55,585 nucleotides of DNA from an uncultured Planctomycetales bacterium (GTDB lineage: Bacteria > Omnitrophota > Gorgyraeia > Aquiviventales > Aquiviventaceae). Below the pieces are notes generated by a model. The model ran no database searches, was not told where the DNA came from, and saw only the letters and a program-made list of their open reading frames with translations. The position numbers and the translations under genes were made by a program. This document shows positions 19,193 to 53,816 of the stretch, in pieces. The number at the start of each line of letters is the position of its first letter. The first letter of the stretch is position 1. The stretch is from positions 1 to 55,585 of the forward strand of contig CAYJRJ010000003.1 of assembly GCA_964372775.1 (NCBI GenBank). The letters run 5' to 3'.

Positions 19193-19253
19193 ACGCTGGA
19201 ACCTCCTACAGCTCAACGTGTCAACCGTTCCTTCGCGTTGGAACAGTGACCAT

Positions 19254-19282
19254 AATATAGATGATTTGAAAGACTTTGTCAA
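19254..19282 (-). promoter_or_regulatory. Sigma70-type promoter TTGACA-17-TATATT for the 19.2-9.0 kb operon
   Basis: On the minus strand the -35 TTGACA is at 19282-19277 and the -10 TATATT at 19259-19254, with a 17-nt spacer. It sits inside the only strongly AT-rich island of this region (19193-19325), about 60 nt upstream of ATG 19192. Confidence 0.6.
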
Positions 19283-19325
19283 GCAATTTACTATTACAGT
19301 TGTTACCATATTTACTCCTTTGATC

Positions 19326-22300
19326 TCAAATGCCTCGCTGGACAGCACGAACGGATTGCACGATCCCATTCAGTCGAGTGGAGTTAGGCATACTCGCTTC
19401 CTGGCGGCGCCACTCCATCCACTGCAGCACCAGGCTTGCCGCCGTCATGACGAGCGCAGCACCCCAACTCCAGACGCTCTGCGCCGCACCCAGCAGCGCG
19501 TCATTGAGCCACACCACAGCCGGCACCCGCAGCTGCATGACGGACACCACCGGTGTTGTGCGCATCCCCGAGAGCGCGTAGTTGCGCAGCGCAATCCCCA
19601 CACCGCCCAATACACTCGCGGCGCCCAGCAGCGCTGCCGCCGGCACGCTCCAGCCGCCGAGCGCGACAGGCGCGTGCCACGCGAGCGATGGCAGGCTCAC
19701 CCCGTAACCTGCCGCCGCGCCGATCGCCATCCATACGCCCACGCCCAGCAGCGCCGCAATCAGCGCCCAGAAGTGGACCAACCAGCTGCCTACCCTGGCA
19801 GGATAGCGGCCGTCCTGATGCTGCACGCGGTTGAGCGCCACCACATTCCAAGTCGTTAGCAACACCGCCAGCGTTGCCAATCCGGCGCCCAGCCAAGTCT
19901 CCAGATTCCACAGGGGCCATTCCATGCTGTGCAGCCAGATCGTCCCGACCAGACCCGCGAGCGCGGCTGCGATCTCCGCCGCGTGCCGCCGGCTGAGCTT
20001 GCCGGAGAGGGCATGACGCGCCGCAAAGTACAACGCCGCCAGCGGCACCTGCGCTCCCAGAATCGTAAAGGTCAGGGCCGGGTCAACGAAGCTCAGCGAC
20101 CACGCCACGAGCGGGCCGGCGAGGGCCATATTCATGGCCAGTATCCACTGGTCTCTCAGGCGCACGCGGGTGAGCATGGCCAGGGCGGTCTGCGTGAACC
20201 GGCGCGGCGAGTAGGCGCTCGAGGCCGTCCAGAACAGCGGCATGACCACGACATTCAGCGCCAGATAGAGCACGTGCGCCGGCGCCCACCCGAAGACCTC
20301 GACCAGCGGCTTCCAGATCACCGCTTCCACGGCGCCGATGGCCACGCGCGCCAGCGCCGCCGCCACACCCTGCCAATAGGTCGCCCGCGCGGGACGCGCC
20401 AACGGCGCTGCCACTCGGTCGTCCGTCATTTTCAGCTCAACCGTGCTGGATCGCTCGACGGTCAAGGGACGCGTCGGATCAAACGCGCCGAGCCGATCGT
20501 GCAGCCGGTGGCCGTCCACCCAGACCTCGAGTGCCCCCAGATCCCGGCCCTGAGCCATGGCGTGCGCGAGCTGATCGCCCAGCGAGAGAATCAGCGAGTC
20601 GTGGATGGCCTGCGCATGCGTGAGCCCCTGCACTACAATGCTGATGGCCCCGTCGGCCAGCGGCCGGCCATCGGTGCCAAGGCCGCGCGCGAGCGCCGGG
20701 TTCACGATGCCGTCCGAATCGATCTCAGCGAACCAGCCTCCCATGCGCTCCATGCGCAATCCCTCCCGGACATTACCCGAGGCGCTGGTCGTTGAGATGA
20801 AGACCAGGGGCCGCGCCGCGCCGGCCGGCGCGTGCCGAAGCTGAGCTTGGAGCCGGCTCACAAACGCCCGGCCGCGCCATGTCGGCAACAACTGCTCCAG
20901 CAGAAAGAGACGGCCCAGGAAGAGCCAACGCAGGGCCCGCTGCAGCCGCACCCATCGCGCGGCTCCTTTGGTCAGTTGCAGTGCGGCATTGATGAGCAGC
21001 AGCCCGTCCGGCTGGCTCGGCCCGCCGTTGGCCCAGTGGCGCAGTGCCAGCATTCCTCCGACGCTGCTGGCCACCATGATCACGCGGCCCGGGCGCTGCG
21101 CGCGCAGATGCGCGATCACATCCGCGACGCCGCGCTGCACCAGCGTCTCAACCGGCCGATGCAGGCCGCGCCGAATGTGGTGCAGATCCACAAGCTCCAC
21201 GCTGGCCACGCGCAGTCGGCTGGAGAGCTGGCGCGCGACACCCTGCATCCAGTAGACATCCACCTGGCGCCGCCCGAACGATGCCTGGAGCTTGCTCAGC
21301 AGAAACTGCTGCAGCTCCATCATGACCATGCCGGGCAGCATGACGACGGTGACATCCGGCACCTCGGGAGCATCGGGCCCACCGATGAAGATCTGCTGGC
21401 CGGCCGGCGTGACGTCCTCGAGGAGACGGCTGGACGGCGACTCGATGGAGAGATCCTCTCCTGCCACCACGCTCCAGAATTGGCGCCAGCTGCTTCCAGG
21501 GTCGCTGACCAGCCAGGCGAGCGCCATCGCTGAAATACCCAGCACCAGCAGCGGCCATCCAGTCGCGCCAGCAAGGCTCAAGCCGATGCCGGAGATGGCG
21601 ACGATCGCTCCCGTGATGATCATGAAACTCGGCCAGCGGGCCAGCGCTGCCCGCAGCGAGCGGAGCAGATTCGGGAGAAAGGTGATGAGCATCCCCACCG
21701 GCGCGGCGAGGGCCAGCTGGCTGAAGGCTGAAGGCTCAAGGCTGAAGGCTAACCCGGGGCCAAAAATGGTATCAGATACCATTTTTCCGGAGCCATCGCC
21801 GGCCAGCGCGGGGGCGGCCAAGACGAGGATCAACAGCAGGACAACGGGAAGAAGCCCGGCCACTCGGAGCGCCTTGCGCAACTGCCGGATCCGCTGCGGG
21901 CTGACGCCAAACATCTTGGCGTGCCGCGCCGATGTCCATGTCGGATGGTTCCGCATCTGATCCAGCAGGACGTCACGATCAACTTTTTGCGCTGGGCCCT
22001 TCGAGGAATACGGAATGCCATGGCGGAGCATCCACCGCCGCATAGTGGACTGGCTCACCTGATAGCTGTCCGCGAGCCGTTTCTGTGTCGCATCGGGATC
22101 AGCGTCAACACGAGCCCTGAGCTCCTCGCCGGACGGCCGCACGCGCGGCCGTCCAGAGAGCCACCGGGCGGCTGCGAGGACGATGAGCAGCGGCAGCGTG
22201 GGAGGCCCGCCGAAGCGATACCACGCCATGGCCCGCAGGAATCCCGCATGGAGGAGTCCGGTCATCAGGAGGAGAGGGTTGCCGGCGCCCCGCTCCGAGT

Positions 22301-25300
22301 CGGTGCGCAGTCCGAACCGCGCGTCCTTGATGACGGCCCGCACCTCCTGCAGGATGACGGAGGCCCCCATCCCGGCCTGCGCATAGGCCAGCGCATCCGC
22401 AATCACCGGCCGCTGGCGCACCGCAATTTCGCGCAGGCGCCCCGCTACCTGGCGCATCCGCGCGGGATGCATCCAAATGATTCGATCCTCCGCATCGTGG
22501 ATGCGCAGCAGAACGCCCTCGGGCGAGAGCCAGAGCCGATGGGCGTCATCCGCTTCCACCTCCTCGTCCCGCAGCAAGCGCTTCACCCGTACCGGCAGAA
22601 GCACGGAAAAATCCTCTCTGCGAGTGAGCCATAGCGTGCCAGCCTCCGCACGAACGCGCGCCGCGGCCTGCGCCCCGGGCCGGTAAGCCCGCCCGTCCCA
22701 TTCGATCCACTCGCCAGCCACCAGGACGTGGCGATCATCGAGCGGCTGATCGAGCGCGCGCCGCGCGGCGGATGGCGCCGGGTCGTCCACCAGACGCGAG
22801 ACCTGCGTAACCGCATGCCCCTTGGGCAAGCCGGGGGTCTTTTTCTGATACGGCAGCTGGTGCGCTTTAATCGTCAGCGCAACCGTGCCTTCGGTGCACC
22901 CCAACGCTTCGCCCAGCTGCTTTTGGGTCCATTCGGGATGCGCCGCGATCAGGCGCCGAAGCGCCTCAGGGTCAATGCGGCTGCGGCCGCGAAAATCCTG
23001 CCCGTCCCGTTTGGCCGCGCCGGGGCCTTCGCCGGTGCCCGGGCCTTTTTGCCCCACCGCGAGAAGGGCATCCGGCAACCGCGGGAACTCCAGGACCTCC
23101 GCGCGCGCTCGGGACCACCGCTGCTTGATGGCATGGCGGATCTTCCGGATGCGCGCGCGGCGCAGCGCGGCGAGCAGGGGCCCGAGCACGATCGCGCTTA
23201 CTGATGGCGCAACGGGCGCGCGCGACTGGGGCTCCCCCGGACGCTGCGGGGGCGCAGGCAGACGCTCCAACGCCCACGCCGCAGCCTGCAACCTGCGCCG
23301 CACCATATCGAAGACCATCTCCAGGGCGGCTACGCCCGGCTTCCAGGTGGTCAGGAACCGGATTCCCTCATCCAACTGCTCATGAATGCGTTCCGGCAGC
23401 TGCGGCCGCACCTCGCGCAGCCAGAAGAGCAGCGCATCGCGCTTTTCCACCTCCGTCATGGAGGCGTCGCGGAAAATTTCATCGATGTCGTCCGCGATTT
23501 TGCGCAGCACCCAAATCGGGGAGGCCTTGGCGTCATATGCCTGATGCTGCTCCCAGCCCTGCTCCGCGGGACCGGTTTCCCGCGCCGGAGCCTCGGGAGC
23601 AACTCCCAAGCTCAGCGCGCCGGTGAGCAACAGGGCCGCGAGGAACGAGCGGAACCAGCGGGTCCATTCGTGGACGAGGTAACGAATCGCACCCGGGATG
23701 CCTCCCAAGAGTCGCGCCGCGAAGGCTCCCGCATCCATGAGGACGACCAAGGGAGTGGTCAGGTGATACAGCACCCGACGCAGCAGGGGATGCTTTTGGA
23801 TCGCTTCGATCAGGGTGAGTCCTGGATGGGCGCGGACCCAGAAGACGAGCCCGGCCAGCGCAAGGGTGCCGCCGCCAAGGAGTCCGAGGCCGAGCTGCCA
23901 GTGACCGAGCTCGGCGGCGGCCATCGCGGCCAGGTACGGCAGGATGTGCAGCGCAACATTCCAGCCTTCAGAGGAAACGCCGGCCGCGTGGAGGCTTTCG
24001 TGCGGAAGGACCACGAGCCAGTGGACGAGCGGATGATACGCGCCAAGCCGTGGAGGCCCGCGGATCGTGCGCGTGGATGGATCATACATCGACAGCCATG
24101 TCACGAGCTCATCCGACACGATCCCCACCGGCACCTCGCGCTTGCGGCCATCACGCTGCAGCACCATCCCGCGTGCGTCGATCCATCGGCCCAGCCGCGT
24201 ATGCGACCAGCGAGTGAGCAGCCACTGATTCACTCGCGCGCCCTCCGTACTCGCGGCGCGGCCTACGACCATGGCAAGTTTCCGCTCATCCTTTGCCATC
24301 TGCGCCGCCACACTCAGCAGCCATACCTCGAGCGCGTATCCGCCGATCACCAGCCCGCCCAACACCAGCGCGCTATCCATCGGCGGCCGGCCCCAGAGCC
24401 ACAGCAGACCGAGCGCCCAGACGAACACGATGGCGCGCGCCCCCTGAATCGCCCCGGCCAGGCTCGCTACCACGCGGCTGGTGATGGGCTGCGGCTTGCC
24501 GGGGCCGTTCATGCGCACGCCCTCATACCACTCGAGCGCTACGGTGAGCTGGGTTCGCATCGCCTTGACCAGCTCCAGGGCACGCGTGCGACTCCCATCG
24601 GTGTCGCCGTGAAAGAGGTGAGCCCAGTTCAGACGTCCGTTGTGCTCAAGCGCCACGGTGAGGCGCTTGGTAGATTTCTGAACCGATCGGAGCACCGTGG
24701 CGGTCTTACCGGTCAGGCTGTTCTGCGTGTGGTTCGGCACAGACTCGACCAACGCTTGAAACCGCTCCGTCAAGCGCCGGAGCTCTCGGTTGGCCGTCTC
24801 CAGCGTCTCCCAGAAGAGCTCTTCGTCTTGATCCCCATCCTCCCGGGCGCTGCGAATCATCTCCTGGAGAATGGTGAGCCGGTTGCCCACCAAATCACCC
24901 CACGCCTTCTGGTGGAGCGCAAATCTCGCGTCGTGGCTTTCCTCGCCTTCCAGGATCCCATCATCCGTCGGCGCGCTGATGCTGTGGCCTGGCCCTCTCA
25001 CCAGGCCGCGTTGCCCGTTGCGGCCGTTGGCAGGAGCTGATTCGGCCGCGGCAGGCGCCGCGTCCTCGATGACGTCGGGCACATGCATGGTCGCACGCTG
25101 CGCATCGGTCAGGACCATCCCGCGCTCGCGCGCCAGACGCCCAACGGCCCGGCCGATCCGATCAAGCCGGCGGTAAATGGCCTGATGCGTAATCGGGGTG
25201 CGCTTGGCGAGCTGCGGCACGCTTTGGTCGGGATGCTGCAGCCAGAGCTCGGCGATCGCGTCATCCTCAATGGTCGGCGGCCGGTATGTCTTCGCCACGT

Positions 25301-28300
25301 TGCGCAACTCCTCAAGCGTCCAGGGCACACCGTCCGCGCGCAGCTGCTCATTGATGACCGGCTCAAGCCGGTTGAGCTGTTCCGCCACCCAGTCGAGTGA
25401 GACGCCCCACGTGTGGGCCAGCGCGGTCAGCTGAGGCGGCGCGGGGTTGCGGCCGCGGGCAAATGCGCGAGCCCCTCGGAGATAACTGTGAAGCAGCTGA
25501 GGATCTGTGACATGGGTTACGACTCCTTTTCTCTCATACTCAAGGCCGTGTGACGAAATGAACTCCGAGAGGTACGTGTGATTCACTTTGAAATGGTCCG
25601 CGATGTCTCGTTGGGTTTGCCCCGGGTGCTCGTCTATATAGACCTGCACCTTGCGAGGATCGAGCGGGCGTCGCTCGAGATCAGCATCCGTCACGCGCAG
25701 ACCGGCGGCTCGTCCGGTCAGGACAATGAGGCGGCGTAAGGAGGCGTCGTGCCTCACGCGGCGGCCGAGCTCGGTGTCATCGAGGCCCACCTGCCGGGCC
25801 ACGAACATCTTGCTCGGCGCGCGACCATGCTCCTGGTAATACGAAATCCAAGTTGAAGCCACCGTGGAGTTGTCAACTGTGCGATGCCGACCTTTCGGGT
25901 ACCTGTTGTGGTGACTCCAGTACACCATGAGGCGATTGACCTGTGCCCGGTTGCGCACGGCGACCGTGAGCACGCTCCTGATGACCCGCCACGTGTGCTG
26001 AAGTAGACGCAGTCCCTCCACGGCGCCGAACCGCGCATTCCAGTTGAGTTGCTGCGAGACCAGTTGAAGCGGATACGGCCGCGGCATGCTTTCCCTTGCA
26101 CCCTCGCGTCGTTCGCGCAGGCTTCTCAGCCGCACGCCCTCCTGCGCCGCCAGCGCCTTTACCTGCGCTTCCAGATGAGTCAGGTACGCGTGTGTGTCCG
26201 CGGCACTGCGGCTTCCCATCAGTTCCACCGTGATGCGCTGCGGCAGCCACGTTCGCAAGGTGACCAGTAGTTCGGAAAGCGTCCCTTCACGTCGCGCATG
26301 CGCGATGGCTTCCCGCAGACCGGTCAGAAGCTCTTCAAGCGGCATGGGACGCTCCAACGTGCGAATCATCCTGTGCGTCCCGGGAGGCGCCCCCATCGGC
26401 GGAACGATCGCGAGGGTGATCCCGCTCGCAAGCGCAGCCGGGTATCCCCACACGACCCACAGTGTCGCGAGCCCCACGGCTGCCAGGGAGAGCCCGGCGA
26501 GAAGCGCCCAAGCACTCGACCCGCGAACCCAGCGGCCGCCGCGGGTGCGCCCATCTGGTGATGGGGCCCAGAGCGCTGCCAGGTCGCGGCGGATATCTTC
26601 AAGATTGCGGCGAACGGCCGGCGCGATCGATCCGCCACGCTCCGCCACGCGCCGCTGCAGGTCTGCAATCGTCAACGCCAGGGTGGCTGGCGGGCGCCCG
26701 CCGGCTTCGTCATAGACCGCGTGCAGCAACGCGTCGCGGCCCTCGACATCCAATGCCTCTAGCACACGGATCGCATCGGTCAACCGCCCGATGATGATCT
26801 TGGCCAGCCGCCCGCGGATGCGCGTTTCGCGCTCCACATGCGCGATCATCAGGCGCATGGCAGCCACAGCCTCTTCTCGGCGGCGCGCGGCATGCCCGTT
26901 GATCGCCAGCGCCGCCTCCATGGCCGCCAGCTCCTCGCTGAACGCCTTCTGCAGCGTGCCGCGCCTGGCCAAGAAGGCACGCAGGCTTAGCACCATACGG
27001 CGCGCTCGCTCAAACCCGTGCGCGATGAGCTCGGTCCGAACCAGTGCTGCCTCCGGCTCGCGCGCAAGCCATGCGCGCGTGGCCTCAAGCCGTCGGCGCG
27101 CCGTCACCAGTGCCTCGGGTGCGGTCGTAAACGGCGTCTTGCGCAGCGCCGGCTCCAACGCGGCCAACCACTGATCCTGCGATTCGAGGTGTGACGGGAT
27201 GCGCCGGGTCAGTTGGCGCACGCGCTCGATCCACGCCTGCTCCTTGCGCTGCTGCCGCAGCAGGCTCACCGCCTGCCTGACGACCGCCTCGCGGATGCGC
27301 TGAATGTCCTCGATGCGCCCCTTTCGCAGCGCGTTCTTGGCGTGCTCGATCTGGGCCGCCGCCAGGTCGGTACCCCCCTGCGCGAGCGCGGTACTCGCCT
27401 GTTCAAGCTCAATGAGCGCATCGCGCTTGCCCTCGACGTGCCCGCGCTCGAGCCAGACGATGACGTCCGCCAGCTGCTCTCGCGCGCGCTGCACGCGCCG
27501 GTCGCTGGGGCTCTGGCGCAGCTGCAGCTGGATGACGCGCAGGTTGCGCAGCTGCTCGAGGATGCGCAGGAATTCGGCGTATTCGGTTTCGAGTTTGTGG
27601 TGCATGCCGCGCAGCGCCGCAGCCAGCGAACGGTACGTGACGGTGACTGACCGGCGCGCCTTCACTCGGCGGCCGCTGAGGATGTTCACCGTAAAGCGCG
27701 TTTCTGGAATGCGCAGGCGGCCATCGGGCGTTTCCTGGATCCCGTACCCGGAGAGCCCGAGGACCTCGAAGATCGCTCCGAACCAGGACGCGGCGGTGAA
27801 CGTGTCGCCGCGCGAGCCGGTCGCGTAGGCGCGCAGCTGCTCCATCGCCAGCTCCATCTGCCGCTGGCGCAAGCCATCGTGAGCGCTCAGCAGCGTGGCC
27901 AGCGCCGCCGGGATGTTGCCGCGCGCGAGATGCCGCTCGATCAACCCCGCCTGCATCGCGATGCGACGCAGCAACAGCTCCTGTGCGCGATGGTTGAGCG
28001 CGCCCAACGCCTCGCGATCGCCGGCCTGCTCGAGGCGGACAAACTCGGGCAGCAGCGCGAGGTACTTTTTCGCTAACGCTTGGCTGCGCTCACCGCTGAG
28101 CTCTTCAGCAGGCACCTCAGGCAGCGTGAGGATGCGCCGCAGGTCGGCGAACGTTTTCGCGGCATCCACGGGGACCGCGCGCTGCGTCGTGTAGGCCACG
28201 TGCAGCTCGCGATGCAGCCGCAGCAGACTCCGCGCCGCCTCCTCGGTGAGCAACTGCTGATCGGTCGGGGTGACGCGCCCAGATGTGGGACGCGGACCTG

Positions 28301-31300
28301 ACGGAGGACGCACCATGCGCGCGATGCGCTGCACCATACCGCTGATGCCGATCCCTGAACGCGGCTCGAGCCCGGCGTAGCGGTGGCCCCGCGCGGTGGA
28401 GTATCCGAACAACAAGTCATGGTGCCGTGCGCCGCGGCCACGCCTTGCGTTCGTAGGTGCCTTGGGCAGCGCGAGGCCGAACGCCCGAGCGGCCTTATAG
28501 AGGGCGCGATCCCCGTCCTCGGCGGCGGGTTTCCGCAGGGTGGCGGCGTTGTTCGCGAGGCCGGCGGTCTCGCGGCGGGCGAGCTCGGCCGTGACCGCGG
28601 CAGCATCGGGGTACGTGACGATTCGGCTACGCGGCCCACCCACCACGTCCCGCACCACTCCTTCGAGATGGTATGGAATCCTGCCTTGCTCGAGTTGGGT
28701 ACGCAAGAAGTCGCGCAGCTCACGTCCGTCGGCCTCCAACTGATAGAAGGCTAACTCTAGGCGCCGCGGCCAATCCGTCCCGGAAGGTCGAGCGAACTCC
28801 CTCAAGAGATTATCAACCGCCCGCACCAGTGCGGGTCCCGTGAGACGGCCTCCCACCATGCTTCCTGACCCAAAGCCCCGGCGCATCCTCGCGGCTCGCT
28901 GCGGCACGCCACCAAAGCCGATCCCTGAACGCGGCTCGAGCCCGGCGTAGCGGTGGCCCCGCGCGGTCCGATCAACCAGACGGCCGAGTGATAGCCTGTG
29001 GTAGTTCGCGGAGTGAGACGGACCTCCGCGTGTTGGATCAGCCTTCGCTCGCAACGCGGTGAGCCATGCCTCCGCCGCGCGCGCGAGACCGTTCGCCCGA
29101 TCAAGCAGATGGTGAATGGTGTGGGTCGCGCTTTCATCGGAAGGCGACGCGTTCTTTCTGAGACGTGGCAATCGCCGCGCAAGACGTCGGGCCACCTCCC
29201 CTGCGCCATGAGCCAGCTCTTCAACATTGCCCTGTAATGCGGCAAGCGCGTACGAGGATTCTGTTGATGAACGCACGTGTGCGGGCTGCTTCGGTTGGTG
29301 GAACAGATCGGCATACCGCCGTTGAGACCGCTGCAGGGTTTCTTCCGCCAGCTCAATCAGCTCCTGAACTTCTTCAAGAGTCTGAATGCGTTGATGCGCC
29401 GTAAGCTCTCGCTCACCCGCTTCATCTTCTGTCGACTCGTACGCTCCCCTGTAATACCACACGATCCGGTTAGCTGCGACGAGCTCGTCACTCGCCGTTC
29501 CCATCTCGCGAGCAAGCCCCCACAGCATGTTGGCGCTCGATCGCACGCTTGGCTGTGCGGGCTCGCCGGCGTGCTGGGGTGCGGCGGGCTCAAGGAGCGG
29601 TCGGCTGAGCCACCGGGCGATATTCACGAGTTGAGGTGCGGTCCAGTAGCGACGAGTGCGTGGGAGACTGCGGAGGTATACGGCCGCCATGCGCTCAGCT
29701 TTCTGTCGCACCGCGGCTTGACGATCGTCTGAGAGACTTCCGCGTTCGAGCGCATACGCGATCTCAATCAACACACGGCGCAGCACATCATCAGCCGCAC
29801 GAGCGTCAGTCTCCGCCATGCGGAATGTGGATTGCACCAGTCGTTTCGTCAACTGCGCCGTCACATGATGCTCGAGCCGACCGTAAGACGCCCCGGGTAC
29901 CAGCGGCCCGCCGCCAAAGCCCAGAAACTCAAGCTGCAGTTGCGTGGCGCCTGCCGGAGCCGGGAGACGGCGGAGGAGCCGAACCGGACCGAAGTCTCGA
30001 TGGCGCCACACCGATGGCGCTGGCGGATGCTGTACACGCCGCGCGTGACGTCCTGAACGGCTCTTCGACACCCCAAACCCGCGAACACCAGCCCGGCCGA
30101 GCAAACCATCAGATCCTCCCACGCCGAGACGTCCTGCGTACAGGTGGCCGCGGCCATCGAAGCGTCGAATTTGATTCAGTGAGGGATCGTGGTGACGGGC
30201 GAGACCTCTCGGTTCGCGTCCCGAACCGTGCAGCGGACGCCGGGCCAGCTCGCCCAAGGTGTCTGGAATGTCCAGCGCTTCCCACGCCTGCGGGAACTTG
30301 GCGCTTCCAACATCGATGGTGAACACCACATCGAGGCCGACGTCAGGATCCAGGACCCGCACCTGTCCAAAGCGGTCCGCGCGGCGGTCATAGCCCGTGA
30401 GAAACCGTGCGGCTCTGATGAACGCCCGGTAGAGTGCGCGGCTGATCCTGGCGTCGGATCGCTGACCAGCCCGCCCCTGCACCTCGCTCAGCGGAGGCTC
30501 GAAGAACAGCCATCGCCCATCCGGGGCGTACACGCCACGAACCTGGTGCTCATGTGCCGCCTGGCGGCGGCCGAACAGCTTGTCATGGGTGATGCCGCCG
30601 GCGTCGAACCAGGCGTGGTCGTCATGCTGCGAATCAGCGATGATGCCTATGGCCAGGCCCCAATCTTCATCATCCAGACGCCGATCTCGAGTGACGGCCC
30701 GATCTATCGCCGCTTTGGCCTGTGTCCGGTTCCGGTAATACCGACGCGGAAGTTCCTCGTGGGCCCAATGCGTGGAGGCGATGAGCAGCGGAGCCGCTGC
30801 GGCGATGCCAAGCGTTGCAAACGCCGCGTAGGCCAGCGATGAGGCGAACCACAGCACGAAACCATGGACGAGCTTGGAGCCCCACCCGCCCGTCCGCTTA
30901 GACGGCGTACCCCCTCGCGGCGGCAAGAGTCCGATCCCCACCGCCAGCGCTTCAAGAACCTGCTCAGCGTAGCGCGCGTCACCATCGAACTGTTCCAACA
31001 GCGCCGCGCGTTCCGCGGAGTCCGTGGAGAACAACATCTCGATGTGCCGGATAACCTCTCCGGCAGCCACCCAACGCATGACCTGCGCCTGCTCGATTGG
31101 GCTTAGGTAGGACCAGACGAACAGCCGTTGAATCGCCGGCCACGCTCCGCTGGACGCCAACGTGCCGTCCGTCACGCCGGTTTCATCTTCGTATTCGACA
31201 GACACGTTCACCCGGTCATCATCGGACCACACCTGGGCGTCCTCGACCCACAAGAGGCGGGTCGGCTGATCCGACAGCTGCTGGAGCACCTGCCAGCGCT

Positions 31301-40300: not shown

Positions 40301-43300
40301 GCGCCCAGTGGAGCACCCAGAGGAGTCCGATCGCCAACGTGATCACGGCTGCGACACCAGCCTGCAGCCGCTCCTCGCGAATCTGGTCGGTGAACGTCCG
40401 CCGCATCTCGCGCCACCAGGAGCGATCCAGCGCTCGACGTGGCGAAGTCGCCAGCGCGATCAGCGTCGCGAACGCATACGCCCCGATCAGTTCCGTCACG
40501 CGTCGGGCCTGTCGCAGCATTGCGCGTATCTCATCCAGCGCACGCGCCTCGACCTGGCTCTGATACGGCGCATCGAGGATCTGACTGAGCTCGCGCTGTG
40601 AGATGGTCGGTACGTAGGTGCCCTGCGGCTGGTCCTTCTTCCCTGCGACGGACGCACCGAGGGCCTCGAGCCGGTAGATGACCCATTCGTGAGCATCCAG
40701 TATGTCATCGGGTTCGGCATCCCCCGTCATCCTCACCAGTTGATAGCCGAGTGCTTCCACCTCACGCAATGCCGTCTCCGTGCGCAATCGCTCTCCTGAA
40801 TCTCCGTCATCGTACCAACCCACAATCAAGTAGCCTCCGGGCACCAGCGTCCTGACGACCTCGTGCACGATGGCCTTCTTTTCGTCGCCCGTAATGGACG
40901 GGGCGGAGAGGACGCTCATCATGACCACCGCGCTCAGCGAGTGGTCCGGCAGCCCGCTGCGCTGGAACGCCGCATGCGCTGGCGACGCTTGACGGCCCTG
41001 CGCGCCTGTGGTATCGTCGACGATACGGAGGACGTGATCCGATGCCAAAGAGCGCGGTGAAGTTATCGACGAGGCAGGCCCAACGGTTGCTGGAGCAGCT
41101 CCCACCGGTCGTGAAGATTCATCTGGTGCGGCGCTGGGAACAGCAGACGTGGCCTGTGCGGTTACGCCAGCTCTTGGCGCGGATCGATCGACGCCTCGCA
41201 ACGTCTCCTGGACTTGCCCGAACGGCGCGGAAGAGTGTGGGCCCGGCTCGTCGGGCATTCCATGCTGCGCGCCGTCATCGACACTAACGTTCTCTTGAGC
41301 GGCTTGTTGGGTGGCCGCACGCGTCCTCTCCTCGGTGCGTTGATCGCCCGTCGGTTCCACCCGGTGGTCTCCCCCCTGCTCCTCGAAGAGTTGCTCGATG
41401 TCGTGAGTCGGCCCGCGTGGCGTCGTCTGCTCACTCACGCTGATCTTGGCGACTTGCTGACGATCCTCCATAGCGCGACTGCGCTCGTCATCCCCACCGA
41501 ACATCTCACGGTCTGCCGCGACCCCGAGGACAACGTCCTGCTTGAGTGCGCCCTCGCCGGTCGTGCCGACTTCCTCGTCACCGGAGACAACGACTTGTTG
41601 GTCCTCGATCCCTTTCGCGGCATCCGTATCCTGCGTCCGCGCGAGTTCCTCACGCTCCTGTCCTGACTTCGCGGCGGGCGCTGGCGCCGGCTCGTGGGCC
41701 GGGGCTGGCCCCGTCTCGGGAGTCGCGTCAAACGGGGCTGGCGGCGGCTCTGATCCAGAGCTGGAGCGCGTCGGCGGTTCGCTCTGACGAGCTTTGGGGA
41801 AGCCGCTGACGGTGATCAGCGTGCCTGTGGTGACTCCACTCGACGTATGTTCGCTCGGTTGCGGCTCGAGCTCGCCAGCTCTCCGGTCGCTGGCGCGGTA
41901 CACCACCCGTTGCCCCAGGGACTCTACCGAGAAGTCCAACCCATTCGCGTTGGCGGCCTGGCGCGCCAGCGGCAGCCCAAGCCCATGCAACACTGAGGGC
42001 CCGCGGGTTGAGGTCGTGGTCCCAACCGGCATGCTTCGCGCAATGTCAGCGATCCCTGGCCCTAAATCCCGCGCGAGAAGCTCGAAACCGCGTCGCCCGC
42101 CCTCTTGCTGCTCACGGATGAGGATGAGACCTGGCCCGCGCGCATGCGTGAAGTTCTTCGCGAGCTCGCCCGCTACGAAGCCTGGCGCATCCCCGCTGAG
42201 CCCCAGGCTCTGCGCAAAAAGATCCACAGCCGCCAAAATTTCCATCGCCCGCTGATCTGAGCCGTCAGCGGGATAGACGCGATAGCCGAACTCCTGTTCG
42301 AGGCGCGCCCTAGCAGCGGCGACCTCCTCAGATGTAGCCACCGGGGGCAGCAGCGTATCCATCAGCGCACGCGCCTCGATCTGGCGCTGATTCGCGGCGC
42401 GTGAGGAAGCGCTACCCTCAGAGGCCAACAAAAATGCGGCGAGCGCCTCATCGAGCCGTGTGATCGCATCGGTGACGGCGCGCCGCTGGGCGTCGGCGTC
42501 ATCGCGCGGCGCGCTGAGGAGCTGCTGGAGCACCTCGAGGAAGCGATCGCGCATCGCGTCACTGACCGAGGCATCCTCACCCCACCGCTCGCGCAAGGTG
42601 GCGGCGAGATCCTCCACCCCCACACGCCAGACATGCGGCGGCTTGTCGGTCATCAGCTCATACAGCATGTGAGCTAATCCGTAGGCCCAGCTGGGCGACC
42701 GATCGGTGTTAGCTACGTAGTCAATGAATCTCATGGTTGGCGAAGCGGCTTCCCCGGCGACGAGCACATTTTCGATCTTCGGGCTGAAATGATGAATGCC
42801 AGCTGATGCCACTTCGCTCATGCCAAGGGCCAGCTCTCGCGCCAGGCGCATCCGATCCGCCCAGGAGGGCTGTGTGTGCGCGATCCATTGGTCCATGGGC
42901 TCGCCGTCCACCCACGACCAGCGCAGCAGCGTCCAGGGGCGGCGTTCTTCTTCCATATCCTCATGGCGCCTGAGCGCGTCACCGGTGTAGTTCTGCGCCA
43001 CCAGCATCGTGTGGCCCGCTTTCCGATCGTCGGCGCGCACATCGAGCGGTTCGGTCGCCTCCAATACCACAAGGCGAGCCGGTGGCGGCGTCAAACGCCG
43101 GCGCACATCCGCGACGCGCTCGGCGCTGAGGTCTTCGTGCGGCACCTTGGGAATTTTGCCGAACCACTGACGGCCCTGCGCATCCAGCAGGACCACTTGC
43201 ACGCTGTTCATCCGCGCCCCGAGGACGTCGAGCAGATGGTAGCCCGCCCGCTCAAGCGGCGCGCGCAGCACGGCCTGCCACGCCGCACGCTGCAGCGGCA

Positions 43301-46300
43301 TCGGCGGCAGAGCCATCGCGCTGACCGGCGTCCCGGACGCCTCGCGCAAGGCGCGCCAGGCGCGCAACTCGATGAGCGCTTGCCCCATCGCCGCGCGCTG
43401 CTCGATCACCGCGTCAGGCGGCAGCGCCATCAGCTCCCACAGCAGCTGCGCGAGCGCTGCGCGTTCGGCATCCGTAACGGTCGGATCAGCGCCCCACCGC
43501 TCGCGCAAGGTGGCGGCGACATCCTCCTCACCCACGCGCCAGACATGGGGCGCGCTGTCGGTGAAGAGCTGGTAGAGCATGCGCGCCAGGCCTGAGGTCC
43601 AATGAGGGCGCGTGTCGTCGTGGCCGATATAGTCAATCTGCAGAAGCGACATGCGCCCGTGCTGTTCGCTGACGAGCACGTTTTCCATGACGGGGTCATT
43701 GCGGCGAATCCCGCGGCCAGCTAGGGCAGCGGTGGATGCGACGAGCTGTTCGGCAAGCTCCAGGCGCTGCATCCACGAGGGCTCGCTCGCCGTGAGCCAT
43801 GCATCGAGCCGCTGGCCGTCCACCCACGACCAGCGCTGCACGGTCCATGGCCTGCTTTCGTCGTCCATCCGCTCCTGGCGCCTGAGCGATTCCCCAGAAT
43901 AGTTGTGCGCAAGAAGATGCGCGTGACCCGCTCGTCGATCGTCGGCGCGCACATCAAGCGGCTCCACCGTCTCCGCCGGCACGATGTGTGCGGGGACGGG
44001 CGTCAACCGTCGCCGCACCTCTTCTACACGCACCGCCGAGAGATCCTCGCGCACACCAATCGGAACCTTCCCGGCCCACACGGTGCCGGCCGCATCGCGC
44101 ATCCGCACGACCACGCTATCCACCCGCACGTCCGCCACCCATTCAAGGTCATAGCCCGCGCGGCGCAGCGGCTCGCGCAGCACCAGCAACCAGGCCGCTT
44201 GACGGAACTCTTTCGGCGGATTGCGGCCGCTCGGCGGCAGGCCGCCGAGACCAAGCGCTAGAGCCGGAACCAGACTCAGCCATGAGACGTCCGTCGCTGA
44301 TTCCTGAGCGATAGCAGATATCGTCTGTGAGGGAACGATATCTGATATCGAGGGGAGGGCGGCTGCCGCCGAGGCCAGAGCGAGCGAGCCGGCCAGCGCC
44401 GCCGGGGCGAAGAGCGCGAAGACGCCGGCCCGCGTGCCACGACCACGGCCCCGGCGATCGGACGCGCCTGGTGAGGAGCCACTTCGGCCGGTCGGACCGC
44501 CTGGCATGGGGGCCGCCCAGCGCTCCTCGGCGTAGTCTTCAATCATGCGGGCGACGCGCTGCGGCCGCTCTAACACGAGCACGTGCCCGTTGAGCATCCG
44601 GCCCGGATTCGTGAAATACTCCCAGGGAGAGTTGATCTCATCGGCGATGGCCTGCGCCTGATCGTCCGGGATCAGCGCATCACCTTCGACAAGCACCGTG
44701 ACGACGCGGCGGCCCGCGGAGTCGTTGTTGAACTTACGCATCAGCGGACGGGCCCCGAGGAACCGTTCCCACAGCTTGGCCTTCAACCAGATGTAGACCG
44801 CCGCATCGATCTCCTGGCCAATATGCCACGGACGGAACGTGCCGCCTGATGCTACCACCCGCCTCTGCGCGATCTTGAGCAACGGCTTTGAAATCAGGCC
44901 AGCGGAGGCCAGAGGCGCCAACATGCCCAGCCACCAGGTGTCCGGGAAGCGTGCTTTGGTTTGCTCGCGGACCGTATCCGCCAGCGCGAGCCACCCTCGC
45001 ACCACCAGCCCAGGCACGCGGCTCTGGATCGCCAGCCACGCGAGGGGATAGGGTTTTGCCAGCAGGACAAGTGACTGAAGCGGCGCTTTCAAGAGCCGCT
45101 CGAGGAGTGCCGGCCCAGGCACCGGCAGCGCGTCAACACCAAGTTTGACGACGCTGTGAAAATCGCTGATCGACATCGACGGATCAAATGGCGTGATCCG
45201 CATCACCCCGCGCACCAGGTGGAGCACTCGATCCTTGGGGGCAGCCGCGTCATCCTGGAGCACGACTTCCTGCCAGATCGTGTCGGCGATCGAGTGCGTC
45301 ACCCAGAGGATGCCGTCCTCCTGACCGAACCGCTTGATGATGGCCCGGCGCTCCTGGGCGTAGCGCTCCATCAGGTGCAGCCGGGATTCCTCGATCGTGT
45401 CATAGGGGGAGCTGCGTCGAGGGGCGATGACGGTGTAGTCATCCTTCAGGAGCTCCATCACCAGATCCCACGAGAGCTGGCCGGCCGCCCCGTGATCAAG
45501 TCCGATGACCGGCTTCCCTGGTTTGCCCTTTCGAAAGTCCACGATGACTTGGCCGACAATCGCGCCATGGTCGTCCAGGACGTCCACGGGCTCGGTTTCC
45601 CAGGTCCGCGACTCCTCATCGAGGTAGAGCCGTACCTTGTCGCGGCCGAGTTTCTCGCCCAGCTCGTGGATGATGCGCCCGGGCGTCTCTTCCACCGAGC
45701 CCTCGGGAGCGAGCACGCGTCCTGCTGCCATGCGCTTGTGCTTGATCAGCCCGCCTGTCACCACCATGATCGCCTTGCGGGTCCTCAGGAGCCGCCGTCG
45801 CGAGGCGGTCACGCGCACGGTGCCCGACTCATCGACCATCACGCCGTACGGCGGCACGTCGCGCCCCCTGCGCAGCAACGGATCCCGCGGGTGCAGGCTG
45901 GCGGTCTCCCCTCCCTCGCCCAGGGCGAGGAGTGTGAGATCCATACGGCGCCACCCGACCTCTTCGCTGTAGCGCTGCGCTTCCTCCTTGGCGTGGCGCA
46001 TTGCCGCACGCTGGGTCTTGAACGACCCCCTTAAGATGCGATGGACCTGCGGCGCCACAGGGAGCTTGGACAGGAAGGTCTCATGAAACACGCGGTAGTG
46101 GCTTCCCGCGTGCGAATCCGGCACCATGCGCTCATCGGTAAAGTAGATCTCCCACTTCGACCAGTCGGCGTCACGGGTCGCGAGCAACGCATAGATCGGC
46201 GCAAACGTTCGGCCGCTGGCGATTTGGAGGCGGAACACGCCGCGCGCGCGAATCGCCTCGTCGGCCGCTGTGGTGATGTCATCCACCACATCCCTGGCGA

Positions 46301-49300
46301 CCTCCCGCCCGTGGAGACGTTCCTGCACGCCAAACGGCAGTTCGTACCCGCCATTGCCGTTCGAAGCCTCAGGCGCCGGCGACTGGAGTCGCGGGCTGTC
46401 GGAGCGGGAAATCCCCAGCGGGAGATGGAAGCGCTCCTGGATGATGTAGAGCGCGCGGACCAGATCGGGAAGACCCACCGCGTTAGGCGCGCGGGGTTGG
46501 ACGACGTACTGCAGCAGCCTGAACAGGTGCAGGACCGCCATCGCCATCGGCCCAGCCACAGAGTAGGCCACGATCATTGCGCTGAGGTACTGGCCCTGCT
46601 GGACAAGGTCGATTGGTGCGCGCCAGGCGTGGCCGAGCAGTAGCAGACCCGTCAGCCCAATCCACGCCAGCGGTGCGCTGGCGGCCACGAGGAAGGTCAA
46701 CCACGAAGTCGGATGCTCCGCGATCCAGCGGCTCTGGACATAGGAGCCGGTTGACGACACAAGACTGCGCTCCACCGGCACGCCGAGGGCGACTGCGACC
46801 ATCTCATGCAGGGCCTCCTCGATCCAACTGAAAGGCAGGAGGAGCGCCATGGTGGTGGGGCTGTGCATGTCGGTTGACGGACCGAGCGAGGGCGCCTGGT
46901 AGTCGCGCGGGCGAAACGCCGGCTCTTCCATGACGCGTTTGAGTTCCCGTTTGACGATGACGGATTCACGACGGGTCAACGGGCGGCCGCCACGTGTCAG
47001 GTACAAGGAGTTGTCCGCCAGCCCGCCGCGCCACCAGTCATGCCGCGTGATAGGGATGATGTCTTCCACATTGAGCCCAAACGAACGCAACACATGGAAG
47101 ATGCGCACGAGCAGGCCCGGGTAATCACCGGTCTCCATGTCCAGGCGCGTCCAGCCGTCGTTCCGGCGCATCCGGATGCGCGTGGATGCCAGGCCCTCGG
47201 GACGCGTCATCACCCGCGGCAGCACGTCCTCGATGGAGCGCGCGCCGTTGAGCAATTCCTGCAACTGGGCTTCCAGGTCCTCGACGCGGCCCACACCCTC
47301 CGCGCCCACCCGCGCGGTTTCCACGGCGAAGCGGATCAAGACCAGCGGTTCGGCTCCCCGCGGCGGCCGCTGCTCGATGTGCGGATGCATGTCATGCACG
47401 GTCAATCCCCACCTGTACAGCAGGGCGATGACGGCGTCACCTAGGCCGGGCCTGTCACCCCGCAGCACCACCACGAGCTCCGAGATGCCTCTCGGATCCG
47501 CCGACGGACGAACCGCGAGCACCGCAGAGAGACCGCCGGTAAGCAGCCGATGGACGAGGCGAACCTCCTCCACATCCTGGCCGCGCCGGCGCAGCGAGCC
47601 GGGATCGTTGGCCACGAGATTCGCGTAGCGGCGCGCGGCCTCCGGTGAGACATCAGGCGCGACGTCGTGGAGCACGGCAACCATCTCCCGCATCCGTTCG
47701 CTCCTGCGCGGCACCCAGGAATCCGGATCCGCGACGGCGGACGCATCGATGCGGTAGAGTGCTTGCAGCTCCTCGTAGATCGGCACCGCAGCCACCCGTC
47801 CACGCTGGCCGTCCACCGCGGCGATGGCCAAGAGCAGCATCGTCCGGTCGAGGTTGCGCCGCATGACGGCGTTCAGGAAACGCACGACCGCCGCCGGGGT
47901 GGCGGTGTTGACTTCGCGGCTCCAGGACTCCAGCAGCAGGAAGTGCTCCACCGCCCAGCGCACATCCGCCCCCCGGCCCCGGTCGGACGCCAGCCCGTAG
48001 CGGGCCAGCAGGTCTCGCAGAAACGCGCGGCGGACCTTCGGATGACGCGCCGCCGTCACGGTGAAGAACAACACCGCCAGCCGCAGCGGCACCCAGAGCC
48101 GTGCTCCCGCCGCGCGGATGCGACGGAAGACCGGCGCAGTGCCGAGTTTCATGGCCCGCTCATCTGCCCGCAGCTCTCGGGTGTGGAACCACAGCATCCG
48201 CTCCAGCAGGCGGACGTCCGAGAAGATCTGGGCCCCAACGGTCGCTCGCCGCTGCCGGTCAAATGTCGGCATGTACTGGACGGCATCAAACCCTGGAATA
48301 AACTCATCCAGGATGCCGATGACTTGCATCCGCCGCAGCGTGTAATACAGCGACTCGCGAGCCGAGACCAATTGCACAAATTGCCGGTAGCGGGCCGCCG
48401 CGAAGTTCGCATCATGTCGCATGGTCTCCTTGAAGGAGCCCGCATGCTCCTGCAGCGCATCAAGCAGATCGGGTGCGAGCCGCAGGTTGTCGTGGGTGGG
48501 GTCGGCGGTCAAGAGCAACAGCTGCAGATAGAGCTCAGGATGCTGGGCCAGCGCCGCCGGATCGGCACCACGGTCCAGCGCCACTTCGTAGCGCTCCTGG
48601 TAGCTAAACCCGTCTTCGAGCGTAAACAGCCAGCCGGTGCGCTTGATCAACACGAATCCCTCTGGCATACCCTCACGCGTGACCTCCTCCACCGCGGACG
48701 GCGAGGCCTGCTCGACCGATCGGCGGATCACCTTGTAGGTCACCAGGAAGAGGGCCTCGGCATGCCGGTAGTAGTCCTCCATCAGCGCCGCCGCCGCATC
48801 CTGATCCCGGACCCGCTGATACGCCGGCAGCGCCTGCGCCACGCGCACCTGCAGTTCCCTTGTCAGCGTCGTGCCGAAGCCGCCCACCGCTTCCATGGCG
48901 CCGCGCACCTCTTGCAGGAAGTTGAGGGCGCGCTCCGCCTGATCAATCTCCTCCTGCCGCAGCAGACCGCGCTCCACCAGCCCCATGAGCACCGGCTCGT
49001 GAATGCCCTGCAGCTTGGCGAACCAGCGGATATAGTCGTATTCCCGCAATCCGCCGGGGCCTGACTTCACATCCGGCTCGTGCGCGAAGAGCTTCCACAT
49101 GCCACGCTGTCCGCTCGCATCCGGCCCTTGGTATCGCTCGCTCCATTCCTTGGACAGCAGCTCGATGACGCGCCCGCGCATGGTGGCCCCAGCCAATCCG
49201 CTCACCTGAGGCTGGCTTAGGAACTCCTGCCACTGTTGCCGTCGAGCGTTGATGAGCTCCCGATCACCGGCCACGTAGCGCATGTCCTGCAGGTGGTTGA

Positions 49301-52166: not shown

Positions 52167-52238
52167 CGCCGCCGGCGCGGGAGTGGTGGAAGCCGTCAGC
52201 GGTGTCTTGGCTTCGCCTTCAAGCCTCCGGGCGAGCGC

Positions 52239-52267
52239 TTGACGCGCAGAGTCCTCTACGGTATCCT
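52239..52267 (+). promoter_or_regulatory. Cassette 1 promoter TTGACG-17-TATCCT
   Basis: Counted directly. AGGAGG at 52275-52280 follows. Confidence 0.5.
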
Positions 52268-52292
52268 TGACCACAGGAGGTTGTGTGCCACC

Positions 52293-52556
52293 GTGCGACG
52301 TGTTCAGATCTGGTGGGATGACGAGACGGCGGAGCACCTTGCCAGGCACGGGGTGGCGCCAGAAGAAGCGGAAGAGATCTGCCGGGTGCGCCCCTACATC
52401 TTGCGTACGCGGCGGGGCCGTTACCTGGTCCTTGGATACACTGGAGCGGGGCGATATCTGACTGTCATCTTGGAGCCAGTGGGAGGCGGCCGGATGAAAA
52501 TCATTACGGCGCGAGCGATGACGCCGCCTGAACGCCGACGGTATCTGGAGCGTTAA
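52293..52556 (+). CDS. brnT: BrnT-like (DUF497) type II toxin
   Basis: VRRVQIWWDDETAEHLARHGVAPEEAEEI...GRYLVLGYTGAGRYLTVIL...KIITARAMTPPERRRY. Taken with a GTG start; an in-frame TTG at 52281 is an alternative. The ORF track frame is 52131..52556. Confidence 0.7.
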   Translation: MRRVQIWWDDETAEHLARHGVAPEEAEEICRVRPYILRTRRGRYLVLGYTGAGRYLTVILEPVGGGRMKIITARAMTPPERRRYLER

Positions 52557-52559
52557 CCC

Positions 52560-52793
52560 ATGAAAAGTCATATTCCAACGTTCAAATCCTTGGACGAGGA
52601 GCGCCGATTTTGGCAGACGCACGACGTCACGGAATTCTGGTCTGAACTGACCCCGGTGACTCTGAAGTTTGGAACGTCCAAGCGTGCGCGGTCGATTCAG
52701 TTGACCGTCGTTGAGTTGCGCGCCCTCCAAAGCCTCTTGAGGAAGCTTGTGACCGCTGAACGACCGCCTGCCGAATCCCACCGGAAACTGTAA
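52560..52793 (+). CDS. brnA: BrnA-like antitoxin
   Basis: MKSHIPTFKSLDEERRFWQTHDVTEFW.... It starts 3 nt after the brnT stop, in the toxin-first order typical of brnTA. Confidence 0.7.
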   Translation: MKSHIPTFKSLDEERRFWQTHDVTEFWSELTPVTLKFGTSKRARSIQLTVVELRALQSLLRKLVTAERPPAESHRKL

Positions 52794-52799
52794 TCCGAA

Positions 52800-53060: not shown

Positions 53061-53079
53061 CGCCGTCGGCGCGGCGCTG

Positions 53080-53109
53080 TTGACACGAGTCGTCGACGTG
53101 GCGTATACT
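53080..53109 (+). promoter_or_regulatory. Cassette 2 promoter TTGACA-18-TATACT (CGTCGACG palindrome in the spacer)
   Basis: Counted directly. The predicted TSS is only a few nt before ATG 53120, so the mRNA is leaderless or nearly so. Confidence 0.5.
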
Positions 53110-53119
53110 TTTGGACGTG

Positions 53120-53798: not shown

Positions 53799-53816
53799 GG
53801 CCCGCACCCCTAACGC

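Follow-up and report, generated by a model that had tools for sequence, protein, structure and literature searches.

A gene of more than 12,086 codons in a high-GC bacterium of the PVC superphylum fits the description of multi-enzyme giant proteins

Described giants and the open frame at this locus

Proteins of at least 10,000 amino acids (aa) have been described by the thousands in Omnitrophota (West-Roberts et al. 2023, bioRxiv 10.1101/2023.11.21.568195; Nielsen & Lui 2026, bioRxiv 10.64898/2026.06.07.730766). In class 1 of Nielsen and Lui, the "multi-enzyme metabolic cluster", many distinct Pfam families tile one chain, and GT1, PF08241 methyltransferase, HATPase_c, GNAT and HD domains recur among the Omnitrophota giants. 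The published giants of at least 10,000 aa have a mean of 22 transmembrane (TM) helices, with about 2% of residues in such helices, and 94% of them have a TM helix or a signal peptide. They are mostly sequence singletons whose flanks are enriched in genes for secretion and pilus machinery, glycoside hydrolases and carbohydrate import, and their long tail is concentrated in the class Gorgyraeia. Here we describe a giant open reading frame (ORF) on the minus strand of a 55,585-bp stretch of DNA with about 65% GC (contig CAYJRJ010000003.1; the whole stretch is called the window below). The ORF, at 19326..55585, is a genuine, very large protein-coding gene of more than 12,086 codons from an uncultivated high-GC bacterium of the Planctomycetes-Verrucomicrobia-Chlamydiae (PVC) superphylum. 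It fits the description of the Omnitrophota multi-enzyme giants on every testable point, apart from the ambiguous phylum of its host and the hallmarks of a narrower type (Archaeovorin) discussed below, and is of a known, descriptive kind, not a new one.

The likeness to class 1 begins with the architecture, a single ORF of more than 10,000 aa with many enzyme Pfam families and none dominant, and extends to content: GT1, PF08241, HATPase_c, GNAT, HD-type regulators and sugar-metabolism enzymes are common to both. The number of TM segments is also similar, with the published mean of 22 set against about 24 hydrophobic segments here. All genes between 864 and 55585 lie on the minus strand. In the order of transcription, the giant is followed by a Tiki/ChaN-like gene, an FBPase-like ORF (1,650 aa), a PEPCK-like ORF (1,207 aa) and orf258, which has a signal-like N-terminus, and then by genes for a PilZ protein, a sugar-binding protein, a GH94 phosphorylase, a CBM11 protein and a glucoamylase; the last four partly resemble the carbohydrate-related flanks of the published giants. 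Unlike those, the locus has 65% GC and an uncertain phylum (relatives labelled Omnitrophota or Planctomycetales), and no genes for type II secretion, pili or mobile elements were found in the 19 kb of flank within the window, all of it downstream. The multi-enzyme giant phenomenon extends to a PVC lineage of that composition. The GlnD-like, 6-phosphogluconolactonase, fold-type II and TreT modules described below are not mentioned in the available text of Nielsen and Lui, in which the words "cysteine" and "pseudoenzyme" have no occurrence; neither cysteine avoidance nor loss of catalytic sites is reported in the available parts of either paper.

Three further kinds of very long ORF were compared. 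In proteins of the Archaeovorin type, whose type member comes from Velamenicoccus archaeovorus (West-Roberts et al. 2023), as in the giant, TM regions are numerous, the glycosyltransferase and methyltransferase domains are highly diverged from homologues that occur as separate proteins, no domain can be identified in the N-terminal region, and carbohydrate import genes lie nearby. The Archaeovorin-type proteins in focus exceed 30,000 aa, the giant being much shorter, and their hallmarks (SecA_DEAD and SecA preprotein-binding domains, C39 or S8 peptidases, NUDIX domains, glycoside hydrolases and beta-helix repeats) were not detected in its 12,069 aa, although some of them may lie in the part missing at the 5' end. 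Nonribosomal peptide and polyketide megasynthases (NRPS/PKS) are also encoded by very long ORFs, but Pfam scans of the giant found no condensation, adenylation or carrier domains and no KS, AT or ACP domains, in agreement with the preliminary description, a reading of the letters alone, which had seen no such module logic. The giant repeat adhesins of the RTX/Bap type, including the 36,805-aa protein of Chlorobium, differ in that the giant has no tandem Ig-like or RTX repeats. Giant repeat adhesins are typically poor in Cys.

The gene was called at 19326..55535, with a GTG start at 55535 and a TGA stop at 19326-19328, and encodes 12,069 aa. The frame continues for 17 further open codons to the window edge and so contains one stop, the terminator, in 12,086 codons. 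As these last 17 codons carry an additional copy of the N-terminal repeat (WLTRDGSTDWRAIW), the true start lies outside the window and the 5' end is missing. The preliminary description had drawn the frame from 19326 to 52166 and given it over 10,900 stop-free codons; its stop end stands, its upper end is a lower bound only, and the stop-free length was understated. Base composition predicts about 300 stops in this DNA (ln P of no stop = -303), and the other five frames hold 121 to 345 each: 302 and 290 in the two other sense frames and 121, 270 and 345 in the antisense frames. Their longest open runs are 235-612 codons and their stops fall every 35-100 codons, and GC bias was therefore rejected as the reason for the open frame. 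GC at the three codon positions of the giant (GC1/GC2/GC3) is 0.72/0.49/0.77. One antisense frame of 19326-55585, with 121 stops in 12,086 codons and a longest run of 612 codons, yields many spurious plus-strand ORFs of 150-550 aa; this is the usual mirror effect of a gene with high GC3 and no evidence for overlapping genes. TAA, TAG and TGA all terminate neighbouring genes, which shows that the standard genetic code is in use, and a change of code was rejected since no stop codon of any kind lies inside the giant ORF.

A codon-usage log-odds score trained on the ordinary genes of the window favours the giant frame nearly throughout from aa ~1186 onward, with dips at aa 3736-3885, 4486-4935, 6736-6885, 8386-8985 and 9586-10035. 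The gene is not built of repeats, as had been noted before. TRF found a single tandem repeat in it (GGCTGAA, 4.6 copies, 32 nt, window 21719-21750), and comparison of the giant with itself by BLAST gave three small repeat families that make up less than 8% of its length. Because the heptamer is not a multiple of three, gaining or losing copies of it would cause a frameshift close to the membrane block at the C-terminus.

The N-terminal part is an array (51876..55585, minus strand; aa 1-1220 and the codons at the edge) with at least five copies of a Trp-rich core of about 87 aa, following the pattern ...PTGDVYGG...DDDTKFAHSGLHLIAGIGRLFGRQWLT.DGSTDWRAIW. The copies recur at an irregular spacing of 254-570 aa and are separated by spacers of 170-480 aa rich in Arg, Ser, Gly, Pro and Thr. 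Two of them (261-nt segments) are 99% identical in DNA, one at aa ~236 is degenerate, and another is cut by the window edge. The array gives no codon-usage signal in any frame, though it is free of stops in the giant frame; it has no Pfam match, and aa 1-1300 have no relative in JGI metagenomes. Between diverged copies, a core of 38 codons shows 7 synonymous and 4 non-synonymous codon differences. In the edge copy, 22 codons carry 5 synonymous changes and 7 non-synonymous ones, which fall mostly beyond the core. The synonymous excess in the core indicates that it is conserved as protein in the giant frame and that the stretch is translated. That the N-terminal 1,200 codons are an untranslated leader, or belong to the frame of another gene, was considered and rejected in view of this excess and because no better or open alternative frame exists.

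Modules, catalytic residues and relatives

Modules were assigned by Pfam, NCBIfam and PDB sequence searches and one exhaustive HMMER search. Amino acid positions refer to the giant ORF, and all the features described in this section lie on the minus strand. The preliminary description had proposed a mosaic of modules resembling housekeeping enzymes, sensors and DNA-binding proteins, and most of its list was recovered by hidden Markov model (HMM) or pairwise searches in the order it gave. At least ten different families are present, and duplicates are confined to a kinase-like pair, alpha/beta-hydrolases and helix-turn-helix (HTH) units; no family could be assigned to about 80% of the length. 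The preliminary description had noted neither that the gene continues past the window edge, nor the lost catalytic residues and the scarcity of cysteine, nor that such an architecture had been published for Omnitrophota.

Past the array lies an HD-like region (51156..51668) recognized by its motif (H...H...LLHDFD, aa ~1290-1345) and not confirmed by any HMM, followed by a TM pair at aa 1599-1640. The GNAT-like module (50301..50468, aa 1690-1745) is present but borderline, scoring 20.1 bits against a Pfam cutoff of 20.7 (E 8e-4), and by eye it keeps the acetyl-CoA loop Q-x-x-G-x-A as Q-G-R-G-V-A. A near-complete GlnD-like unit, from the nucleotidyltransferase (NTase) through the HD/ACT region, follows at 47064..49292 (aa 2082-2824) and matches positions 119-808 of the 850 in TIGR01693 (E 2e-32), with a PF08335 match at 4e-16. 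After a second TM pair (aa 2949-3002) come a 6-phosphogluconolactonase-like (6PGL) module (45666..46307, aa 3077-3290, Pfam 3e-33), the first alpha/beta-hydrolase-like segment (44556..45548, aa ~3330-3660), which was recognized from the motifs DHG..., THSIA, GD..D and NGH, and a TM segment at aa 3703. The two kinase-like units (42453..44126, aa 3804-4057 and 4108-4361) form a tandem duplication of 254 aa with 51% identity between the copies, and the exhaustive search matched them to a Pkinase protein (E 2e-5). Next to them is a GHKL ATPase of the RsbW/SpoIIAB type (41919..42245, aa 4431-4539; HATPase_c_2 proteins, pairwise 2e-15).

The methyltransferase remnant proposed earlier corresponds to a Methyltransf_11-like match (40656..41087, aa 4817-4960, E 9e-8). 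A TM segment at aa 5057 separates it from a pyridoxal phosphate (PLP) fold-type II module (39351..40160, aa 5126-5395) of the PALP family, which resembles serine racemase and threonine dehydratase (4e-35). Of the three alpha/beta-hydrolases that had been suggested, the one at 38211..39098 (aa 5480-5775, epoxide-hydrolase/S33-like) is confirmed at 6e-15, and the other two are recognized by motif. It is followed by a TreT/GT4-like glycosyltransferase (35496..36938, aa 6200-6680, PDB 2e-29) and a TM segment at aa 6874. About 100 aa past that segment lies the motif HELSH (34542..34556, aa 6994), and a second HExxH motif, HESLH, occurs at aa 10512 among TM segments. The XRE-type HTH (33528..33674, aa 7288-7336) is weak (HTH_31, E 0.002; HTH_3, E 0.006-0.011), and a motif pair like that of Tiki/TraB/ChaN proteins (VLHGDY... 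and GGSHLPL) was located at 31836..32588 (aa ~7655-7890). AlphaFold2 models computed from the single sequence were too poor to judge the fold of the HExxH region (pLDDT 43) or the Tiki-like region (pLDDT 52), and Foldseek with these models gave no match in the PDB below E 0.2. The failure of structure prediction is attributed to the lack of homologues, and both calls stay at the level of motifs, as they had no HMM support either. The beta-grasp fold of the earlier list is likewise a candidate at motif level.

Further TM segments lie at aa 8226 and 9677. They precede a series of at least six HTH units of one type (21846..25658, aa 9960-11230; ...HPE.TQK.LA..GVS..T....H.IPY..K), one of which reaches the Pfam gathering score (HTH_23, 26.3 bits against a cutoff of 24.6; Sigma70_r4, 25.6 against 24.1), as the earlier count of further HTH segments had it. 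TM clusters at aa 10355-10650 and 11225-11340 interleave with this series. The third alpha/beta-hydrolase-like segment (20556..21353, aa ~11395-11660) was recognized from its nucleophile elbow, VMVASSVGG, and the chain ends in a multi-TM block (19416..20369, aa ~11723-12040). Contrary to the earlier suggestion, that block matches neither EamA nor any other family, and Pfam scans of the 12,069 aa found no EamA, NRPS/PKS, SecA, peptidase, NUDIX or dockerin families. The last 3,469 aa have no PDB sequence match. A Kyte-Doolittle scan found about 24 hydrophobic 19-mers in the giant (about 3.8% of residues, roughly one per 500 aa), as would be expected from the interspersed TM segments already remarked on.

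The modules share the folds of stand-alone GlnD, 6PGL, serine racemase/threonine dehydratase and TreT, to judge from HMM and PDB matches, but differ from these enzymes in that key catalytic residues are replaced and that they are embedded in one chain between TM segments. In the PLP module the Schiff-base Lys is Ala (TGSFKIRG of serine racemase aligns with TGSIAMRG), the SSGNHG loop reads RDGDEA and the phosphate loop GGGG reads ETGA, and this module is, to judge from these residues, catalytically dead. The catalytic His in the invariant DGHTAS motif of 6PGL is replaced by Glu (GGETAS). Both kinase-like units lack a Gly-rich loop and an activation segment and have Arg in place of the VAIK Lys; their catalytic loops (HxDxKxxN) read RNDPVMEN and HFSPKIEN, and DFG reads DYI or DYV. 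The TreT-like module has Gly for the second Glu of EX7E (EGFGLTVTEAMW reads EGSGLAALGAMW) and an additional insertion of about 70 aa between its halves, and the NTase motif of the GlnD-like unit, compared by eye, reads SQEINHL in place of SDIDLL. In the GHKL module, by contrast, the N box (ELAKN), G1 box (DLGPG) and G2 box (GLGL) are all intact, and the alpha/beta-hydrolase at aa 5480-5775 has, by eye, the triad Ser (ASSMG), Asp (GDEDT) and His (AGHG). Scores fall far short of the NCBIfam equivalog cutoffs, 4-10 times lower for GlnD (112 against 519 bits), the ilvA type (80 against 379) and TreT (97 against 775), with 103 against 124 for pgl. Several modules are thus, as far as their residues and scores tell, not functional equivalents of the enzymes they resemble.

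The giant contains 2 Cys in 12,069 residues (0.02%; P = 1.6e-49 at an expectation of 1%), while the same DNA read in the two other sense frames gives 666 and 328 TGY codons, and ordinary genes of the window (GH94, sugar-binding protein and CBM protein) have 0.9-1.2% Cys. The FBPase-containing ORF has no Cys in 1,650 residues, the PEPCK-containing ORF has 2 in 1,207, both within its signal-like N-terminal peptide, and the product of the Tiki-like gene has few once its start is corrected. These three genes, the next after the giant, all begin with a signal-peptide-like sequence. Cys scarcity is kept in relatives, with none in the 1,313 aa of the FBPase-ORF relative (contig L083) and one, inside the signal peptide, in the mosaic protein P0001 described below. 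Near-total Cys avoidance, TM segments and signal-like N-termini downstream suggest that much of this system lies in or beyond the cytoplasmic membrane.

Relatives of single regions were few. No match to aa 3301-4900 was found in 5.8 billion clusters, and the exhaustive HMMER search with aa 3751-4950 gave 33 weak matches. The sole match of aa 6190-6720 was a normal-sized TreT-type protein (27% identity), and aa 5100-6700 have no close related loci in GTDB genomes. An exact DNA search of the GTDB genomes gave no match to the contig either. The sole match of aa 5450-7850, made through the TreT-like module, was P0001, which comes from Logan run ERR3697022, is complete at 2,240 aa and has a signal-like N-terminus. 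In P0001 one chain holds a Tiki domain of the type encoded next to the giant (E 1e-40) and the TreT-like module of the giant itself (E 3e-42). The TreT-like modules are 32% identical and share the EX7E Glu-to-Gly change and the insertion, and the Tiki/ChaN-like domain is 28% identical to the neighbouring gene product over 442 aa. P0001 is rich in Arg, poor in Lys and free of Cys outside the signal peptide; unlike the giant, it is five times shorter, shares only the two modules, in another arrangement, and is otherwise unrelated. As it joins modules that are separate at the giant locus, it shows fusion and fission of a shared module set, and such exchange between the giant and neighbouring genes across organisms shows how genes of this kind grow. 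The Methyltransf_11-like module (...VVSVGPG...VYEP...ARFEKS...VVVMMSVLSD...GG.LIIGWY...) is of a sub-family met again towards the C-terminus of mosaic proteins of 1,000-3,400 aa from low-GC organisms, which the exhaustive search brought up (P0003, P0004, P0005 and P0020). One of these, P0005, combines kinase-like, GNAT-like and repeated methyltransferase units.

The nature of the product

Most likely, the gene gives rise to one polypeptide that threads through the membrane and belongs to the multi-enzyme giant proteins, and it is quite probable that this single chain acts as a scaffold of enzyme-derived modules, working at the envelope with the adjacent Cys-poor proteins and the sugar-uptake and phosphorolysis cluster. 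The chain would consist of diverged copies of folds that normally occur as free-standing cytosolic proteins, parted by single or paired TM helices and joined by linkers that are compositionally odd and probably disordered. The modules that have lost residues (the PLP enzyme, 6PGL, the kinase-like pair, probably the GlnD NTase and, in its donor-binding Glu, the TreT-like module) are probably ligand-binding, regulatory or structural units, while the GHKL ATPase, alpha/beta-hydrolase and GNAT modules keep their motifs and may be active. The downstream Tiki-, FBPase- and PEPCK-like proteins, together with the sugar-binding protein, GH94, the CBM protein and the glucoamylase, suggest that the system is tied to the handling of sugars and central carbon at the cell envelope; contact with other cells is possible, as has been proposed for the Omnitrophota giants.

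Loss of catalytic residues in some modules and not in others argues for a scaffold or sensor made from enzyme folds over a metabolic assembly line, and the Cys avoidance in the giant, its neighbours and their relatives suggests that folds otherwise found in the cytosol are here exported or work outside the cytoplasm. Should both patterns prove general in the published catalogues, the range of plausible functions would shrink considerably. In a bolder version, which we regard as a long shot, the giant and the next three genes would form an exported, Cys-free apparatus for carbon metabolism outside the cytoplasm of an episymbiotic or predatory PVC bacterium. The scaffold, with its dead PLP enzyme, dead 6PGL, pseudokinases and altered TreT, would organize or deliver the catalytically intact PEPCK and FBP aldolase/phosphatase, both bearing signal peptides, and their delivery to the surface or to a partner cell would tap or rewire the central carbon metabolism of that partner.

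Several observations weigh against the scaffold at the envelope or against the placement of its host. The case for a giant product is built from sequence, and the TM calls come from a simple hydropathy scan. The codon-usage signal is absent from about 1,200 N-terminal codons and from several internal stretches. The HTH modules and the GHKL module, an anti-sigma-type kinase, are easier to picture in the cytoplasm, which would require a chain that either changes sides or stays mostly on the cytoplasmic side. SecA_DEAD, C39 and S8 peptidases, NUDIX and dockerin domains, which mark many published giants, went undetected in the 12,069 aa, and no orthologue of the architecture was found in the databases searched. 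The exact match to an independent assembly covers flank outside the giant ORF, and the taxonomic pointers come from three genes of the window that are not markers.

The best surviving alternative, still an unlikely one, is that the chain is a polyprotein cut into module-sized proteins, which would give many functional units of ordinary size. Candidate cutters are the HExxH or Tiki-like segments of the chain itself, a host protease, and signal peptidase acting on TM segments inside the chain that look like signals. The two HExxH motifs would suit this reading, one of them lying just past a TM segment and the other among TM helices, as would the Tiki/TraB-like motif pair inside the giant and the Tiki/ChaN-like gene adjoining it. 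Cleavage by peptidases has been raised for the Omnitrophota giants (West-Roberts et al. 2023), and the modules fused in P0001 are separate genes here, which indicates that they can work as separate chains. However, no HMM scan revealed a protease family, no recurrent linker or cleavage motif was seen between the modules, and the structure models were too poor to bear on a metalloprotease fold. Processing of this kind is compatible with the membrane-threaded scaffold, since the two are not exclusive.

A decaying, non-functional ORF, made of fused dead gene copies and recruited non-coding DNA, seems very improbable. Its frame would have been kept open mainly to sustain translation and to avoid premature Rho-dependent termination or toxic truncated products, and not for any activity of its modules. 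Several catalytically dead modules, scores far below the equivalog cutoffs for all enzyme modules, long stretches without codon bias and the orphan status of the giant in databases speak for this reading. Yet transcription of the downstream genes needs no read-through, because a strong promoter and ribosome-binding site (RBS) follow the stop of the giant, and the frame has a clear coding signal over most of its length. The extreme Cys avoidance and the synonymous excess in the repeat core indicate that selection acts on the protein as such, the motifs of the GHKL, hydrolase and GNAT modules are intact, and it is implausible that 36 kb would be held open without a protein function.

Least credible of all is an artefact, whether a chimeric contig, collapsed or expanded repeats, or several genes misread as one through a non-standard code: the two nearly identical 261-nt segments mean that the N-terminal copy number could be mis-assembled, and none of the searched collections of proteins and contigs contains the giant ORF, but random joins break the frame two-thirds of the time and none of the roughly 300 expected stops is present, the neighbours end in all three stop codons while none occurs inside the giant, an independent assembly reproduces 10.5 kb of flank exactly, and relatives also carry oversize, stop-free ORFs that contain enzymes.

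Neighbouring genes and the sugar-related block

The spacer after the stop of the giant (19196..19325, minus strand) has 44% GC and contains a sigma-70-like promoter, a near-consensus TTGACA-17-TATATT at 19282-19254, followed by AGGAGG-N9-ATG. The Tiki/ChaN-like gene behind it had been called as a 586-aa ORF (17609-19369). Since the spacer provides its own promoter and RBS, the gene was probably over-called and starts at about 19192 (Met60), not 19369, which gives 17609..19192 on the minus strand and a signal-like N-terminus. Its product is homologous to aa 102-517 of P0001 and shows no significant similarity to the internal Tiki-like segment of the giant.

The next ORF (12691..17643, minus strand; 1,650 aa, free of Cys, with a signal-like N-terminus) contains a fructose-bisphosphate (FBP) aldolase/phosphatase (PF01950) that is split by large insertions and keeps the catalytic motifs KADIG..GH, GNVRGMG, YVGKDD and RGSH. 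Over aa 316-1645 it is 46% identical to its relative on L083 (1-3941), which is open across the whole 3.9-kb contig. The following ORF (9038..12661, minus strand; 1,207 aa) carries a GTP-dependent phosphoenolpyruvate carboxykinase (PEPCK) at aa 120-747 with intact catalytic motifs, behind a signal-peptide-like N-terminus (…HLVLAVAMLCSSMPSAWA|L). In its P-loop, PSASGKTN, a conserved Cys is replaced by Ser, and its tail of 460 aa has an HTH-like segment and two copies of the motif GDITMAAAG[ED]AA.P.WRLDP.LE[LI]TS. The nearest relative of this PEPCK (46% identity, contig L002) lies in NC_groundwater_1349, a metagenome-assembled genome (MAG) labelled "Omnitrophota" with 64% GC, within an ORF of at least 1,285 aa that has the same PSASGKTN P-loop.

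An independent Logan assembly, ERR4904391_643, reproduces window 8107-18604 at 100% identity. Between the PilZ and PEPCK genes lies orf258 (8296-9072, minus strand), which has a signal-like N-terminus and no family match. A plus-strand ORF at 9-842 encodes 277 aa rich in Arg and without Cys or Trp; it has no family match and may be spurious. An Rfam scan of the window found no RNA families, and the window contains no rRNA or marker genes. The nearest relatives of three of the window genes lie in MAGs labelled "Candidatus Omnitrophota" (PEPCK, 46%; GH94, 63%) or "Planctomycetales" (FBPase, 46%; GH94, 69%). The block of genes for the PilZ protein, sugar-binding protein, GH94, CBM11 protein and glucoamylase (864-7904, minus strand) is syntenic in two MAGs, "Candidatus Omnitrophota" OFTM210 with 45% GC and a "Planctomycetales" MAG of study ERP125453 with 58% GC (L084 and L085), which indicates that the lineage spans a wide range of GC content.

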